The notes below the pieces were generated by a model. That model was not told the DNA's origin, made no database searches, and saw nothing but the letters and a program-made list of their open reading frames with translations. A DNA stretch of 64,000 nucleotides from an uncultured Ruficoccus sp. (GTDB lineage: Bacteria; Verrucomicrobiota; Verrucomicrobiia; Opitutales; Cerasicoccaceae). Position numbers and translations under genes: made by a program. Below are positions 42,380 through 47,426 of the stretch, piece by piece; within the stretch, counting starts at the first letter, position 1, and each line of letters starts with the position of its first letter. The DNA lies in assembly GCA_965140785.1 (NCBI GenBank), contig OZ223514.1, forward strand, positions 180,289 to 244,288. The letters run 5' to 3'.

Positions 42380-42460
42380 CGCATCGCCCGAAACTGCCTC
42401 GATATGAAGCAAACGTAAACAGCACGGAGCCGTCACGGGATGCCTCCGAGCTGACCCCAC

Positions 42461-42799
42461 TCAGTTGACTCCGGTCTGCGCGTCGAGCAACTGGTGCAGC
42501 TTCTCCGTTCTCCCGGGCAGGAGGTTTAGGTTGCCTTTGAGGGATTCGGTGAAGGCGTTCTGGAGGGACCAGAGGGTGCGGGGGGTGAAGCAGGCGTGGG
42601 TGGGTTGGCGCCACTCGTGGAGGACTTTGGGGATGTGCTGGTTGGAGCAGACACCCTTGTCCACGGCGCGGATGATGAGGTCGTGGGCGGTGGGGTCGCG
42701 GAGCGGAGTGCGTTTGTAGCGCTCGATGCGGCGGTCTTGTTCATCGAAGCGGGAGACGAGGCGTTGGACGGCTTGATGGGCCAGAGCGCCGAGGTCGCG
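42461..42799 (-). pseudogene. 3' half of a DUF932-family gene (diverged duplicate of 46604-46942)
   Basis: 339 bp colinear with 46604-46942; similarity stops about 11 bp before the first 74-bp element. Confidence 0.8.
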
Positions 42800-42810
42800 A
42801 TTAGGCCCGA

Positions 42811-42884
42811 GGGGGCAGGTCAATAATTTAAATGTTGATTGTTGTCTGACTTGTGTGGTTATTCTAAATTATTGACACGACCTC
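42811..42884. repeat. 74-bp miniature inverted-repeat element, copy 1
   Basis: GGGGGCAGGTCAATAATTTAAA...CTAAATTATTGACACGACCTC, followed by TTCGGCT. Confidence 0.85.
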
Positions 42885-42890
42885 TTCGGC

Positions 42891-43043
42891 TCACAGCAAA
42901 ACTCTGTAGTGAAAAACAACTCAAGTATTCTCCGTAAAAAAATAAACAAAATTGGAAGAGCTAATATGCAGAATGAAATAGCAGCCAAGACATCCAGTGT
43001 CATTAAGGCTGTAGATAAAGCTGTAAATGATAGTAATGATTGA
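42891..43043 (+). pseudogene. Cassette 1 leader: apparent 3' gene fragment
   Basis: 50 stop-free codons in AT-rich DNA from the element boundary (SQQNSVVKNN...KAVNDSND*), ending 30 bp before the next ATG. Confidence 0.55.
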
Positions 43044-43073
43044 CCTCAGAAATTCCACTAATGTACCGTAAAT

Positions 43074-43712
43074 ATGGATGCTATTAATCACATCAAACAT
43101 CTCCATGATGGTCGGCTTAGGGAAATATATGAGGGGGATGCGATCTCATTTATTAATAATATTTCAAGTGTTAACGTAAATGGAGAATATGACCTAGATG
43201 ACTATAGGGAATGTGCATTTGGAGAATATTGGAGGAGGAGGATTTTGAGCCGAAAAACACTTGCTTATGATGATATTAGACATATTATTGAATATCGCCA
43301 TTTGTGGGGTTCATTATCCGTGATTGGTGAGTTTGCTAGGCTTGATTTAATAGCCCCATATTTATTAAACGATTTAATAATTAGCAAGGATGAAGACGTT
43401 TGGTCGTATCGGCAAATATCTGCCCGTAAAATCGTTCATACAGTGAAGGCTTTGATAGAAATTGAAAACCACATGGACTGTTTGACGATCATTAGTGCAA
43501 TAGACCGCCTCATCGAACTTAAGAATGTTGTTTGGGCGATTGAGGAGTTGTTGCCGCTATTACCATACAGTTGCTTGTGTTATCTTTATAACCGACTTAC
43601 AAAAGAAAAAATATTAACTCGTTCTCACCGAGGTCATTTGAATTCTCTTATAAAAAAGGTACTGCAGGAGAAAACCCAGAAGGAGTCAAATCCAGGAGGG
43701 CCATGTCAATAA
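43074..43712 (+). CDS. Cassette 1 ORF, AT-rich hypothetical protein (212 aa; candidate immunity protein)
   Basis: Long ORF in AT-rich DNA between elements 1 and 2; its TAA is supplied by element 2 (CCA TGT CAA TAA). Confidence 0.7.
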   Translation: MDAINHIKHLHDGRLREIYEGDAISFINNISSVNVNGEYDLDDYRECAFGEYWRRRILSRKTLAYDDIRHIIEYRHLWGSLSVIGEFARLDLIAPYLLNDLIISKDEDVWSYRQISARKIVHTVKALIEIENHMDCLTIISAIDRLIELKNVVWAIEELLPLLPYSCLCYLYNRLTKEKILTRSHRGHLNSLIKKVLQEKTQKESNPGGPCQ

Positions 43713-43770
43713 TGTAAATGATGGTTGTTGTCTGACTTGTGTAGTTATTCTGAATTATTGACATGACCCC
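43697..43770. repeat. 74-bp miniature inverted-repeat element, copy 2
   Basis: AGGGCCATGTCAATAATGTAAA...TGAATTATTGACATGACCCC; core TTGTTGTCTGACTTGTGT shared with copy 1. Confidence 0.85.
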
Positions 43771-43814
43771 TTCGCTTGACCCCTTCGCTTTCAATTGACC
43801 CCTTCGCTTTCAAT
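43764..43814 (+). repeat. Junction tandem repeat: 13 nt + 2 x 19 nt
   Basis: TGACCCCTTCGCT / TGACCCCTTCGCTTTCAAT / TGACCCCTTCGCTTTCAAT. Confidence 0.9.
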
Positions 43815-43976
43815 GGGCCAAGGGTAAATATGGGGGGGGCTCCCTACTTTAAATTTAAGTGGTCAGAAGTACGTTTTGAAAACTATATTACTGAGGAGAT
43901 TCCTCGTTCATCGATAAGGCTGCCTTCAGGATTTGATATGTGGAGAGCGATATTTGGTCAGCGAAAAATTAAATAG
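43815..43976 (+). pseudogene. Cassette 2 leader: apparent 3' gene fragment
   Basis: Frame open from the repeat (GPRVNMGGAPYFKFKW...MWRAIFGQRKIK*), ending 24 bp before the next ATG. An internal ATG means it could instead be a small ORF. Confidence 0.5.
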
Positions 43977-44000
43977 GTGTAAGCTTTAAATTAGTGTAAT

Positions 44001-44333
44001 ATGACAGTTGTTGTTTGGGCTTTACTTTCGTTATTCACGGTCAAGATCATTTGGAATCTTTGCGTGCCCTATATACTTTTAATGCGGTTCCGAAAGGAGC
44101 CTGACAAAGAAACTGGTTGGATTTCCATGAAAATTGTGGTCGAAATTTTTCTTTTGCTGCTGGCTGTGGGTATGTCGGCGCTGAGCACTGGCCAGGCCTT
44201 GGTAAATAAACCGCTAACTGTAGCAAAATGGGGTATTATTGCTATTATATTTACCTATTTACATTTATTTATTGTTTGCGGTATTGGGGGATGGATAATT
44301 AAAGTGTTTTATTCACAAGATAAGAAGGGATAG
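44001..44333 (+). CDS. Cassette 2 ORF, small three-TM membrane protein (candidate immunity protein)
   Basis: 110 aa, three hydrophobic helices, AT-rich; stop lies 2 bp before the junction duplication. Confidence 0.7.
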   Translation: MTVVVWALLSLFTVKIIWNLCVPYILLMRFRKEPDKETGWISMKIVVEIFLLLLAVGMSALSTGQALVNKPLTVAKWGIIAIIFTYLHLFIVCGIGGWIIKVFYSQDKKG

Positions 44334-44335
44334 AG

Positions 44336-44373
44336 GAAGCGCTCGAAGGGGTCAGAAGCGCTCGAAGGGGTCA
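44336..44373 (+). repeat. Junction tandem repeat: 2 x 19 nt
   Basis: GAAGCGCTCGAAGGGGTCA repeated perfectly at 44336-44354 and 44355-44373. Confidence 0.9.
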
Positions 44374-45367
44374 TGTCAATAATTTAAATATTGATTAGCC
44401 CCTGTGTTTGTGCTGAGGTGTGCGTATGGCAAGGGCTGTTCGCTTTCAGTTTCCGGGTGCGATTTACCATGTGCTCAATCGTGGGAACTACCGTAAGGAT
44501 TTGTTTACGGCGGGTGAGAGCGGGGCATGGTTTGTGCGGGCGCTGCAGGAGGCCAGTGAGCAGTGTGGCTGGCGTGTCCATGCCTACGTGGTGATGAGTA
44601 ACCACTATCACCTGGTGGTGGAGACGCCGGAGCCGAACCTGGTCGATGGGATGCATTGGCTGCAAACGACGTTTGCGAGCCGCTTCAATCGCTCGATGGG
44701 CGAGCGCGGGCATGTGTTTCAAGGCTGCTACAAGGCGCTGCTGGTGGCACCGGGTCCTCACTTTACGGGGGTGGTCAATTATGTGCATCTCAACCCCGTA
44801 CGCGCGGGCCTATGCACGCTGGAGGATTTGAGGAGCTATGGCTTGGGCAGCTATGGCCACTTTTTTCGCAAACATCGTCCCGACTGGCTGGTGCGCGCGG
44901 AATTCCTCGGCCAACTGCACCTGCCCGACAGCCTGAAAGGGATGAACACTTACGCAAAAATGCTAGCATTGGCCGATGAGCAAGACCCCGAAAAACGGGC
45001 GTCGCTGAGTCGCGAATATTGCCGGGGCTGGCTGATCGGTGACAAGGCCTACCGCGAGCAAGTCCTGGAGCGCATGAACAAGCATGAGTTGCGGGGGAGC
45101 CACTGCGGTGACGATGTCCGCAACCTCAACGAGTTTCGTTGGGAACAGGCGCTGGCAGAACAACTCAAGCAGCACGAAAAATCGTCAGAAGACATTGCCC
45201 GCGCCCCCAAGGCCGCCGATTGGAAAATCGCAATCGCCCGGCACATGCGCACCCACACCCGCGCCACCAATCCCTGGCTGGCAAAAAAGCTCTCCATGGG
45301 CCACCCCTCACGCGTCAGCAACTTGATATACAATCGCGACATTTAAATTATTGACATGACCCCTTCG
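44363..45367 (+). mobile_element. RAYT-like HUH transposase element bounded by perfect 27-bp inverted repeats
   Basis: CGAAGGGGTCATGTCAATAATTTAAAT (44363-44389) and its exact reverse complement (45341-45367). Confidence 0.85.
44426..45346 (+). CDS. REP-associated-type tyrosine transposase (Y1/HUH, IS200-like fold) with C-terminal HTH-like extension
   Basis: MARAVRFQFPGAIYHVLNRG, HUH motif MSNHYHL, HVFQGCYKA and catalytic YVHLNPVRAG; GAGGTG RBS; the stop codon lies inside the right inverted repeat. Confidence 0.9.
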   Translation: MARAVRFQFPGAIYHVLNRGNYRKDLFTAGESGAWFVRALQEASEQCGWRVHAYVVMSNHYHLVVETPEPNLVDGMHWLQTTFASRFNRSMGERGHVFQGCYKALLVAPGPHFTGVVNYVHLNPVRAGLCTLEDLRSYGLGSYGHFFRKHRPDWLVRAEFLGQLHLPDSLKGMNTYAKMLALADEQDPEKRASLSREYCRGWLIGDKAYREQVLERMNKHELRGSHCGDDVRNLNEFRWEQALAEQLKQHEKSSEDIARAPKAADWKIAIARHMRTHTRATNPWLAKKLSMGHPSRVSNLIYNRDI

Positions 45368-45418
45368 GCTGATTCGAACTAATTCAAGAATAGATATAGA
45401 TATAACCTAATAATAATA

Positions 45419-45685
45419 ATGGATTATTTAATCGCTATAAATAGGATATTTTTTTCTTTGACGGTTGTGTATTGGTATAATGTTATTATTGATTTTATTG
45501 ATTTTTTCGTAAAATACAATATTGGCCATTGTATATTGCTTGCTGATAATTCGTCTGTATTTTGGCATTCTTACTTTTGGTTGTGCTTTGGGAGTAATTG
45601 TATATTATCGACATTTATTTTTTTAAAATTAAAAAAACACTACTTTATTTTTATTTTTTTATGCGTACCGTATAGTTGGCGATAG
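45419..45685 (+). CDS. Cassette 3 ORF, very AT-rich hydrophobic protein (88 aa; possibly degraded)
   Basis: ORF between the transposase right end and a degenerate left end at 45709; preceded by a short open frame (LIRTNSRIDIDIT*). Confidence 0.5.
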   Translation: MDYLIAINRIFFSLTVVYWYNVIIDFIDFFVKYNIGHCILLADNSSVFWHSYFWLCFGSNCILSTFIFLKLKKHYFIFIFLCVPYSWR

Positions 45686-45708
45686 TTGCGACGCCAGGGG
45701 CAGAAGAT

Positions 45709-45845
45709 GGGGTCGAGACAATAGCTTAAATGTTAGTTGTTTCTGTGTTTGAGTGCTGTTGAGGAGATTTCCTCCTTCATGTTCTCCCAGCTAAAAAGAA
45801 GCCGTCCATGAGAGACCGGCTTCTTTTTAATCATCCCCACCGGGT
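45709..45845. repeat. Degenerate left half-element plus terminator hairpin, a diverged copy of 46431-46557
   Basis: GGGGTCGAGACAATAGCTTAAATGTTAGTTGTTTCTGTGTTT vs GGGGTCATGTCAATAATTTAAGTGTTGGTTGTTTCTATGTTT; hairpin at 45793-45828 matches 46508-46542. Confidence 0.75.
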
Positions 45846-45859
45846 GCGACGAACCTGAA

Positions 45860-45933
45860 GGGGTCGGGTCAATAATTTAAATGTTGATTACTGTTTGACT
45901 TGTGTAGTTGTTCTAAATTATTGACATGACCCC
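45860..45933. repeat. 74-bp miniature inverted-repeat element, copy 3
   Basis: GGGGTCGGGTCAATAATTTAAA...CTAAATTATTGACATGACCCC, followed by TTCGGCT. Confidence 0.88.
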
Positions 45934-45941
45934 TTCGGCTT

Positions 45942-46025
45942 TGCACAATTAACGTACATTATGTGATGAATACTAAAACTAGCCAAGTTGATGATCTTAA
46001 AATCTTTTTAGCAGGAGTGCGATAG
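45942..46025 (+). pseudogene. Cassette 4 leader: C-terminal fragment resembling a polymorphic-toxin tip
   Basis: CTINVHYVMNTKTSQVDDLKIFLAGVR*; its TAG ends 1 nt before the next ATG. Confidence 0.6.
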
Positions 46026-46026
46026 T

Positions 46027-46410
46027 ATGAAAGTTGAAGTAATTGAAAATAACTTTAGCGGCTGTCCTCCAGAATTGAAAACGTCTGGGTTTACGGCTGA
46101 AACTTTAGTTGATTTAAGCATCGGTGAGGAGCTTAATGTGTATGGTATGTCAGTGTTTTATGGCGTAGTTTTCGTTCTAATTAAAGATCATAGTGGCATC
46201 TATTCTTGGATGCCGAATTGGCTTTTTAAAGTGTTGGATGGTCGGTTCCCTAAGGATTGGGTATCAAACTTCTTTCATGATAACCCAAGTTGTATCATTG
46301 GGCCGGAGATAATTGCCTCTGACCTTGAAAGATATAGTCGATTTATTGAGCAAGACCCTGACCTTGTTACGAAGATGAACCTGTGGGTTGACTCAATGGA
46401 GTCGGGGTAA
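46027..46410 (+). CDS. Cassette 4 ORF (127 aa), candidate immunity protein
   Basis: AGGAG RBS; LSIGEELNVYG...WMPNWLFKVLDGRFPKDW pattern recalled from small proteins encoded behind Rhs-type toxins. Confidence 0.7.
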   Translation: MKVEVIENNFSGCPPELKTSGFTAETLVDLSIGEELNVYGMSVFYGVVFVLIKDHSGIYSWMPNWLFKVLDGRFPKDWVSNFFHDNPSCIIGPEIIASDLERYSRFIEQDPDLVTKMNLWVDSMESG

Positions 46411-46430
46411 CCCCATTGGGGGTCACTAAA

Positions 46431-46472
46431 GGGGTCATGTCAATAATTTAAGTGTTGGTTGTTTCTATGTTT
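46431..46472. repeat. Left half-element closing the array
   Basis: GGGGTCATGTCAATAATTTAAG, preceded by an extra GGGGTCA at 46419-46425. Confidence 0.8.
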
Positions 46473-46507
46473 CGCTAAATTTGCATCAGCCACGACCTTG
46501 CAGCTAT

Positions 46508-46542
46508 AAAGAAGCCGGCCATGAGAGGCCGGCTTCTTTTTT
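46508..46542 (+). terminator. Intrinsic terminator, probably bidirectional, between the array and the convergent DUF932 gene
   Basis: 13-bp stem AAAGAAGCCGGCC/GGCCGGCTTCTTT, 6-nt loop, T-tract. Confidence 0.75.
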
Positions 46543-46603
46543 ATCATCCCCCCCGGTTAAGACCGAGGAGCGGAGTTGCGAGAGTCCTCCGGGCTGAGCC
46601 TTC

Positions 46604-47360
46604 TCAGTTGAGCCCGGCCTGGGCGTCGAGCAGTTGGTGGAGGCGCTCGGTTCTCCCCGGCAGGAGGTTGAGGTTGCCTTTGAGGGCTTCGGTGAAGGCG
46701 TTCTGGAGGGACCAGAGGGTGCGGGGTTGGAAGCAGGCGTGAGCCGGGTGGCGCCACTCGTGGAGGACTTTGGGGATGTGCTGGTTGGAGCACACGCCTT
46801 TGTCCACGCTGTGGATGATGAGGTCGTGGGCGGTGGTGTCTCGGAGCGGACTGCGCTTGTAATGTTCGATGCGGTGATCTTGTTCATCGAAGCGGGAGAC
46901 GAGGCGTTGGACGGCTTGATGAGCCAGTTCGCCGAGGTCGCGCAGGATGAACCGGGTGTGTTTGCGGGCCAGCTTGATTTCTCCGGTGAAGGCGAGGTTG
47001 CTGCACACCAAGACCTGGGTGCTGGCGACGATGCCAGCGGGGAAGGTCTTGTCGTGGGAGTTGCGGATGCCGACGACCCAGCGGTAATCCCGGGCGGTGT
47101 CGCCTGCGCCGATTTCCAACAAGCCGAAGAAGCGGGTGGCTTCGCGGTTGAGGGCGTAGGCGGAGTTGACGATGGGGAGACCCGCGTTCGAGCAGGGCGA
47201 CCTCGACCGCGTTGAGCACGGTGAGGTGCGGGACGGGTTGCCACGTGCGGGTGGAAGGAGGCGTCGGGGCCTCCGCGATCCGGCTGCGGCTGACGGCGCG
47301 ATCGCCGCAATGCAGCAGGAGGTTGCACCGGTTGGGTTTGGCCTCCAGCACGATTGCCAT
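46604..47360 (-). pseudogene. DUF932-family gene with a +1 frameshift near 47180
   Basis: AGGAGG RBS and ATG at 47360 (MAIVLEAK...VALLERG); continues in another frame as LPIVNS...IRNSHDKTFPAG...VCSNLAF; length 757 = 3n+1. Confidence 0.75.
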
Positions 47361-47393
47361 AGAGGGCCTCCTTTCTTTGTGACCTGCGAAAGC

Positions 47394-47426
47394 AAAAAGG
47401 CCCGGATTCAGGTCGTAATCCGGGCC
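47394..47426 (-). terminator. Terminator-like hairpin just upstream of the DUF932 RBS
   Basis: Minus strand GGCCCGGATT-8nt-AATCCGGGCC-TTTTT. Confidence 0.55.

Follow-up and report, generated by a model that had tools for sequence, protein, structure and literature searches.

The DNA analysed here (the window) is a stretch of 64,000 nucleotides (nt) from an uncultured Ruficoccus sp., positions 180,289 to 244,288 of contig OZ223514.1 (assembly GCA_965140785.1). It contains an array of inverted-repeat dimers separated by AT-rich cassettes, together with the gene for a Y1 HUH transposase. The inverted-repeat arms belong to a TIRYT/TIRtron element, that is, a RAYT-like transposase flanked by terminal inverted repeats which carry the motif GGGGWSAS (Di Nocera et al. 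2013, PMC3733652). TIRYTs correspond to TnpA_REP subclass 2.1 (Quentin et al. 2018, PMC6006769). At both ends of one cassette (cassette 2, 43764-44373) the outer tip of an arm is present in perfect tandem copies. TIRYTs and clustered repeat dimers were already known; the tip duplication at a fixed bond seems to be the new part. Literature searches found no report of such a footprint; they took in the accessible text of the TIRYT works (PMC3733652, PMC6006769) and of the REPIN papers, but not their supplementary figures.

The element and its arms

The main features of the array, apart from the tip copies, are as follows.

42810..42891, unstranded: unit 1, a degenerate 82-nt arm dimer (family D2) at the left edge of the array
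43696..43763, unstranded: unit 2 (family D2), lacking its outer tip on the right; a left arm, about 30 nt of loop and a right arm, with ...AATTATTGACA at the end
44374..45356, plus strand: inner part of the TIRYT (TGTCAATAA...TTATTGACA), GC content 0.57, containing the transposase open reading frame (ORF)
44420..45346, plus strand: Y1 HUH transposase ORF, 308 amino acids (aa), identified by Pfam, NCBIfam, alignment and structure model
45357..45370, plus strand: outer tip of the right arm of the TIRYT, TGACCCCTTCGGCT, unduplicated
45859..45940, unstranded: unit 3, an 82-nt arm dimer whose single-stranded form is one long hairpin
46438..46500, unstranded: terminal half-unit, consisting of a left arm alone, followed by a terminator and the 3' end of a DUF932-like gene

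The arm motif AATTATTGACATGACCCCTTCG occurs seven times in the window at up to 3 mismatches, against an expectation of 0. All seven occurrences lie within 42.8-46.5 kb, and their orientation alternates. Three 82-nt units are arm pairs with a loop of about 30 nt; a single-stranded unit is predicted to form one long hairpin (-21.7 kcal/mol, z -4.8). Unit 2 is MITE-like: it joins two copies of the terminal inverted repeat of the TIRYT. At one place the loop is replaced by the 308-aa ORF. The transposase gene is bracketed by inverted arms of 26-29 nt (44342-44389 and 45341-45388), and a 22-mer is perfect at both ends of the element. These flanks pair with each other, not with themselves. The arms in the window (GGGGTCAT) match GGGGWSAS at 7 of 8 positions; the arms of a second copy elsewhere in the genome and those of relatives (GGGGTCAG) match at 8 of 8. 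Closed or empty-site junctions (GGGGTCA/TGACCCC or TTGACA/TGTCAA) are absent from the whole genome, so the limits of the mobile unit cannot be set from filled and empty pairs.

The second copy encodes a protein which is 99.35% identical to the transposase of the window; it lies at C10:480129-481052 (contig C10, positions 480129-481052) and has the same arms. The three bases just inside the boundary are GCC and ATC at the arms of this copy (480082 and 481066) and ACA in the window (44373 and 45357).

The transposase matches the Pfam family Y1_Tnp (E 4.4e-9). It also matches the NCBIfam profile REP_Tyr_transpos (E 1e-17), but the score of 64.3 is below the family cut-off of 80; the transpos_IS200 profile gives E 0.0017 and 18.6 bits against a cut-off of 55. 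All 20 aligned homologues (20 of 20) retain the HUH histidines (H62 and H64) and the tyrosine (Y121). The AlphaFold model has a pLDDT of 86.4, and its best Foldseek match is RayT-REP (4er8_A, E 9.9e-8, TM 0.74); a profile search of the PDB with the transposase returned only 4er8, for the N-terminal domain. The C-terminal half is helical in the model. Proteins of subclass 2.1 are described as having a C-terminal helix-turn-helix related to Bac_DnaA_C, HTH_23 or HTH_28 (PMC6006769). Pfam searches at E up to 10 with the C-terminal 168 or 68 residues gave no match to any of these three families. The sequence TTATTGACA resembles the DnaA box TTATNCACA; the idea that the arms hold DnaA boxes was dropped, as Pfam finds no Bac_DnaA_C in the C-terminus and Quentin et al. 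(2018, PMC6006769) see no likeness between the repeat motif and DnaA boxes.

Tip duplications at both ends of cassette 2

The tip copies are found at the following positions.

43764..43776, plus strand: innermost, partial tip copy of 13 nt, TGACCCCTTCGCT, starting exactly at the arm boundary (period 13, microhomology 1)
43777..43795 and 43796..43814, plus strand: two perfect 19-nt tip copies, each TGACCCCTTCGCTTTCAAT (Tandem Repeats Finder)
44336..44354 and 44355..44373, minus strand: two perfect 19-nt tip copies, each GAAGCGCTCGAAGGGGTCA (Tandem Repeats Finder)
46419..46437, minus strand: an echo, GGGGTCACTAAAGGGGTCA, at the last left-type arm, made up of GGGGTCA, CTAAA and GGGGTCA

The left junction (43764-43814) directly follows the end of unit 2 (AATTATTGACA, 43753-43763) and consists of one 13-nt copy and two 19-nt copies, all perfect; the right junction (44336-44373) consists of two perfect 19-nt copies, which are directly followed by TGTCAATAATT. 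All copies at both junctions abut ACA/TGACCCC, and Tandem Repeats Finder gives a 100% match for all three arrays. Read outward on the minus strand, the right copies are TGACCCCTTCGAGCGCTTC, with no microhomology. Their phase is unique, as the flanking bases do not extend the periodicity; the phase of the left 19-mer pair is ambiguous by one base. The echo at 46419-46437 looks like a decayed 12-nt tip copy. The sequences and coordinates given for these duplications in the original prediction, including those of the echo, all match the DNA. So does its statement that they are not target-site duplications: the copies are tandem, always run outward and contain the tip of the arm, they are confined to one of its sides, and the two sides differ in sequence.

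Since the arms are present in multiple copies and repeats can be joined wrongly in short-read assembly, the junctions could in principle be artefacts. The region 43600-44406 is spanned, with 0 differences and 0 gaps, by a Logan contig of run X1 that was assembled independently (1658 nt, depth 10.8). This check used assembled contigs, and run X1 may be the source sample. The 19-nt period is shorter than the k-mer length (k=31), so both copies are spanned, and the same pattern is present in dozens of unrelated assemblies; an assembly artefact is scarcely credible. Another run, X2, contains only part of the stretch, and one of its contigs has its first base at 43790, within the left repeat zone; either a copy-number variant in the X2 sample or a mere break in the assembly graph may be the cause. 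The joints found in the contig comparison have short sides and derive from other arm copies.

Recurrence in the same genome

The genome (4.36 Mb in 50 contigs) has further arm clusters on contigs C10, C12, C39 and C48. Tip duplications were counted by a fixed test (start -5 to +8 relative to the boundary, period 11-25, identity of at least 85%), with controls shifted by -60, -30, +40, +80 and +150 nt. The test was positive at 6 of 32 arms, against 0, 0, 1, 0 and 0 of 32 at the control positions. Periods of the positives are 13-19 nt, and all four exact cases start at offset 0. Outside the window, duplications which start at the T of TGACCCC are found at these positions.

C10:294882: tip duplication of 16 nt, two copies
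C12:35485: tip duplication of 17 nt, two copies
C12:36031: tip duplication of 18 nt, two copies with one mismatch
C12:36936: tip array of four units of 18, 17, 16 and 16 nt

Another genome of the genus (L035/L050) has a 17-nt tip duplication in two copies. Exact two-copy tandem duplications with a period of 11-25 nt number 27 in the whole genome of the window, and five of them are at arms: in four the distance to an arm boundary is at most 8 nt, and the fifth is the left 19-mer pair of the window. This is far above chance for a zone that makes up 0.044% of the genome (binomial p 1.3e-12). A second TGAC[CT] is present 10-25 nt outward in 14 of 31 arms, compared with 1 of 31 at +50 to +85; the interval -45 to -30 is unusable as a control because the loop of the unit itself has TGACT. 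Decayed tip copies therefore seem common at the arms of this genome.

Recurrence in distant relatives

Relatives of the transposase at 37-56% identity are spread across Verrucomicrobiota, and a profile search of genome contigs returned at least 593 related stretches. The arms of the relatives end in ...GGCCTGACCCC. Two sets of loci were tabulated. The first comprised 31 loci, after one member of a pair identical in sequence had been removed; a tip duplication was present at 10 of 56 arms, and at 1, 0, 0, 0 and 0 of 56 control positions. For the second, the alignment was used as the query and the best 80 of at least 593 loci were taken. Two loci shared with the first set and four on contigs of the first set were dropped, so that 74 were analysed; 26 of these had a clear repeat pair, giving 52 arms. 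Tip duplications were present at 8 of the 52 (controls 2, 1 and 0). Tandem Repeats Finder reported 63 groups of short tandem repeats in the first 32 loci (297.5 kb); 15 were flagged as abutting the arm motif and 14 of them were judged real. Arrays of three to four tip copies are found at locus L051 and at C12:36936. The footprint thus belongs to the repeat and transposase family and not to cassette 2, since tip duplications recur at arms of the same genome and in both sets of relatives.

Upstream of the TIRYT gene at locus L054 (5776-5874), a whole arm with its tip is present in three tandem copies with a period of 48-50 nt. This array resembles a larger-scale version of the tip duplication, and also tandem REPIN clusters.

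Two species carry orthologous tip duplications (L055, 5908-5937, and L056, 5922-5947). The copies are identical within each genome, and the units differ between the genomes (15 nt and 13 nt). A conserved host ORF (432 aa in L055) has its stop codon within the outer copy.

One explanation for such retention is selection: the second TGACCCC would serve as an extra binding or recognition site, as in iterated subterminal repeats, and would be kept because it is useful to the element or its regulation. The frequency of an outward TGAC[CT] in the genome of the window, echoes which conserve TGACCCC alone (such as 46419-46437) and the retention of the L055/L056 duplication in two species speak for this. 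However, many units in relatives start at +3 to +5 and hold the C run without the motif, and variable flank is copied too. Selection would also account for retention and not for origin, and it is compatible with an origin by nicking. As an explanation of the duplications we consider it very unlikely.

Position of the boundary

In the repeat family of the window, every exact event starts at the A^T bond of ACA^TGACCCC (the caret marks the bond), and the lengths are 13, 16, 17, 17, 19 and 19 nt. Two near-exact events of 18 nt are compatible with the same start. The phases of these duplications are unique or ambiguous by one base. The boundary in the arms of this genome reads ACA^TGA, ACC^TGA or GCC^TGA. 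In the relatives, the start, taken at its leftmost possible position, falls between -3 and +5, in most cases at +1 to +5, within GACCCC; offset 0 in their arms reads GGCC^TGAC. The fixed boundary is hence exact within the repeat family of the window and approximate across the wider group. Overall, tip duplications are 11-22 nt long. The direction of copying is outward in all cases, and the shifted control positions on the inner side of the arms gave no copies.

There is no excess of microhomology at arm junctions: microhomology of 2 nt or more is present in 4 of 18 exact arm events, whereas 15 of 22 exact duplications elsewhere in the genome have it (Fisher p 0.005). This bears on an origin by replication error independent of the transposase, in which a hairpin, a cruciform or a bound protein stalls the polymerase and the nascent end realigns and copies the tip again. 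The 82-nt unit does make a long single-stranded hairpin, a steric block might give the fuzzy inner boundary seen in relatives, and existing tandem copies can expand or contract by slippage, as the arrays of three to four copies at L051 and C12:36936 might reflect. But realignment needs homology, which is scarce at the arm events. The boundary in the family of the window is moreover one exact bond, which is set 6-13 bp into the stem instead of at the base, and duplications also occur at arms whose partner is 1 kb away (44336-44373, for example). Stalling and realignment are an unlikely source of the duplications.

Tandem duplications without microhomology are also expected where offset nicks are filled in. 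They might accordingly derive from a staggered double-strand break with fill-in, or from an insert-less target duplication left by the precise loss of another element, with the arm tip as a hot spot. The spread of lengths from 11 to 22 nt stands against this, as a given transposase usually makes target duplications of constant length. The arms have no second element associated with them, blunt rejoining would require an end-joining pathway, and nested copies of 13, 19 and 19 nt anchored at one bond would be unexpected. This origin is quite improbable.

A proposed nick at the arm tip as the source of the copies

We consider it about an even chance (roughly 0.5) that the duplications are scars left by the HUH tyrosine transposase which the element itself encodes, and which would act at the arms by nicking, synthesis from the 3'-OH and resealing. 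The transposase would nick the strand 5'-ACA^TGACCCC-3' and remain linked through its tyrosine to the 5' T. A host polymerase would then extend the free 3'-OH by 11-22 nt and displace the protein-capped strand. The 5' end could be rejoined to the new 3' end by reverse transesterification; alternatively, a few 5' bases might be clipped and the ends joined by host ligase. Rejoining would leave one extra copy of the tip on that strand, and the next round of replication would fix it. Repeated rounds at one nick would build up a stack in which the innermost copy is the latest and may be shorter, which would give the order 13, 19 and 19 nt seen at 43764-43814.

A nick at the boundary, displacement synthesis over 11-22 nt and resealing would together account for the fixed inner end, the variable length and the outward direction of the copies. 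The same steps would also account for the lack of microhomology and for the stacked copies with the partial one innermost; the 13-mer is anchored at the same boundary as the 19-mers. None of the rival explanations accounts for the exact bond, the absent microhomology and the nested partial copy as well as nicking and extension do.

The only relative with biochemistry is the E. coli TnpA_REP, which cuts single-stranded DNA; the products are a 5'-phosphotyrosine and a free 3'-OH (PMC3333891). Its mapped sites are TGCC^TGAT/A and GGCC^TACA, with the consensus CC^T (PMC3333891). The original prediction had placed the nicking or joining site at TGACCCC, and had called for a tabulation of junction duplications in homologous arrays. 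The tabulation bears this out in part: the start is the same throughout the family of the window, and offset 0 in the relatives (GGCC^TGAC) fits the CC^T consensus of the E. coli enzyme, but the boundary of the relatives varies.

Several points weigh against a scar of the transposase. That TIRYT cleaves at ACA^TGACCCC is something we infer; most arms of the window have A^T at this position, and C^T is described as indispensable for the E. coli enzyme (PMC3333891). HUH enzymes need single-stranded DNA, and the putative site is inside the predicted stem of the arm-arm hairpin. The inner boundary is not fixed in distant relatives, and it differs even between the two arms of single elements (L072 and L129). 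An origin by nicking therefore needs an extra assumption: starts at +1 to +5 would require clipping of the protein-linked 5' end or relaxed cleavage. No motif for a second cleavage was found by eye at the outer ends of the copied units, and no formal test for one was made. Finally, the pattern at L055 and L056 suggests turnover, or old duplications which have been maintained, rather than a single fresh scar.

TIRYTs are a large and barely studied family of HUH transposases. A natural footprint which recurs at one bond would supply a nick position and a strand polarity that can be tested. It would also lend in vivo support to the route of nicking, extension and resealing, which for REP/BIME amplification is so far no more than a proposal.

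Comparison with known systems

The element resembles published TIRYTs in its RAYT-like Y1 HUH protein of about 300 aa (308 aa here), its long terminal inverted repeats, its GGGGWSAS motif (here GGGGTCA) and the occurrence of repeat copies as singles, dimers and clusters (PMC3733652). The accessible text of the TIRYT papers does not mention tandem duplications of the tip, a cleavage site or AT-rich cassettes between dimers (PMC3733652, PMC6006769). The word "duplication" occurs 0 times in that of PMC3733652, and once in that of PMC6006769, where it means gene duplication.

The E. coli TnpA_REP (RayT) has the closest solved fold (4er8), and its sites TGCC^TGAT and GGCC^TACA resemble GGCC^TGAC here (PMC3333891). 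In the model published for this enzyme, the 3'-OH at the nick is extended by a host polymerase and the new 3'-OH attacks the Tyr-5'P bond, adding a tandem BIME unit (PMC3333891). The substrates differ: that of the E. coli enzyme is a self-folding REP hairpin with a GTAG tag (PMC3333891), whereas the arms here are inverted repeats. BIME amplification is also modelled as copying the whole BIME, with a second cleavage setting the outer end (PMC3333891); here the unit is 11-22 nt of tip and flank, and no motif is seen at its outer end. Classification as a RAYT/REPtron was rejected, given the lack of self-folding REP flanks and the NCBIfam score of 64.3 against 80.

The 82-nt unit resembles a REPIN in having two inverted arms and a spacer which form one long hairpin (Bertels and Rainey 2011, PMC3116915). 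Tandem REPIN clusters which include flanking sequence have been reported without a mechanism (PMC3116915). The arms here, however, are not REPs, and the repeated part is the tip alone and not a whole unit with its flanks. IS200/IS605 elements (IS608, ISDra2) share the Y1 HUH fold and the absence of a target-site duplication. They are described in the introduction of PMC3333891 as lacking terminal inverted repeats, using one strand only and leaving no tip duplications. This class, which is marked by subterminal hairpins and strand-specific ends, was rejected on account of the 26-29-nt terminal inverted repeats and the transpos_IS200 score of 18.6 bits against 55.

The duplications also resemble illegitimate recombination at the nick site of rolling-circle replication initiators (M13, pC194), where the HUH nick sets one endpoint while the second varies and shows little homology; those events were described as deletions.

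Cassettes and array context

The stretches between the units are AT-rich (GC content 0.35-0.42, compared with 0.56-0.585 in the flanks) and each holds about one small ORF on the plus strand. The parts of cassette 2 are as follows.

43815..44335, plus strand: body of cassette 2 (the whole cassette, 43764-44373, has a GC content of 0.416)
44001..44333, plus strand: main ORF of cassette 2, 110 aa, no Pfam family

The ORFs of the cassettes in the window match no Pfam family, and relaxed Pfam searches gave nothing usable. The proteins of cassettes 1 and 4 fall only into unnamed clusters of the Protein Atlas. Neither cassette 2 nor cassette 4 has a DNA match in 150 other genomes of the order, which include three of the genus, so no second context was found for either. 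Cassette 2 is thus strain-specific, which fits an accessory cassette and gives no date. The proposal that its perfect tip copies mark a recent acquisition is not supported. Tip duplications also occur beside a conserved host gene and cover its stop codon (L055/L056), and one is present at the transposase-bearing element itself (44336-44373); perfect identity can arise by turnover of tandem copies as well. Since the duplications also stand beside conserved host genes, they report activity of the arms and not the arrival of a cassette.

Arrays of arm dimers and cassettes are found in the window (42878-46437) and at C12:34927-36936, C39:139548-143607, C10:294943-295732 and C48:189894-190705. The arrays outside the window encode proteins with Pfam matches to Imm30 (2e-14), DUF4274 (7.9e-12), Sel1 (2.2e-20), HEPN (1.3e-6), DUF3997 (1.6e-7) and, weakly, AHH (0.005); these families are of immunity or toxin type. 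Among the relatives, an AT-rich stretch which ends at a TIRYT arm encodes SMODS and SLATT_4, a two-gene pair of defence type (L067, 1486-2968), and another encodes an SPFH/Band_7 protein (L055, 7136-7966).

A wider reading is that the arms are recombination sites of a TIRYT-driven, integron-like system which collects AT-rich immunity and defence cassettes in Verrucomicrobiota. Exchange at ...CA^TGACCCC would move cassettes between dimers, and the tip duplications would be scars giving, to the nucleotide, the nick site in vivo of an uncharacterised transposase family. The immunity- and defence-type contents support this without proving it, and we hold it to be possible but doubtful. If the arms are such sites, the cassette system would rely on the chemistry of an HUH enzyme instead of an integrase. 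Cassette arrays of integrons, and orphan-immunity arrays associated with recombinases, are similar in having AT-rich, mostly single-ORF cassettes separated by hairpin-forming repeats, and in the immunity or defence type of their contents (Ross et al., bioRxiv 10.1101/471110). They differ in that the repeats here have no attC core and the associated enzyme is an HUH transposase. A true integron (attC/IntI) was rejected: the units have no RYYYAAC...GTTRRRY cores by inspection, and there is no integrase-type tyrosine recombinase among the 15 ORFs scanned for IntI, which cover 37.8-49.7 kb of the window.

The array is bracketed by an 86%-identical direct repeat (42436-42735 and 46579-46878), which is the 3' part of the DUF932-like gene. 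This gene (46604-47395, minus strand) is complete on the right of the array and truncated on the left. A DUF932-like paralogue adjoins an arm and a cassette at C10:630334-630909, and a homologue adjoins arms at locus L049 of the same genus. The end of cassette 3 (45712-45850) contains a degenerate left arm and a second version, 87% identical, of the terminator region that follows the DUF932-like gene downstream (46431-46563). It looks like a former end of the array, beyond which a later unit and cassette 4 were added. On C10, a host direct repeat of about 75 nt (629481-629570 and 630221-630293) surrounds a single arm and a cassette with Sel1 repeats; it resembles a very long target duplication or a product of recombination. 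The C39 cluster also contains an ORF for an rve-type integrase (C39:141192-142112, 306 aa; rve, rve_3 and HTH_21), which is probably an unrelated insertion sequence.

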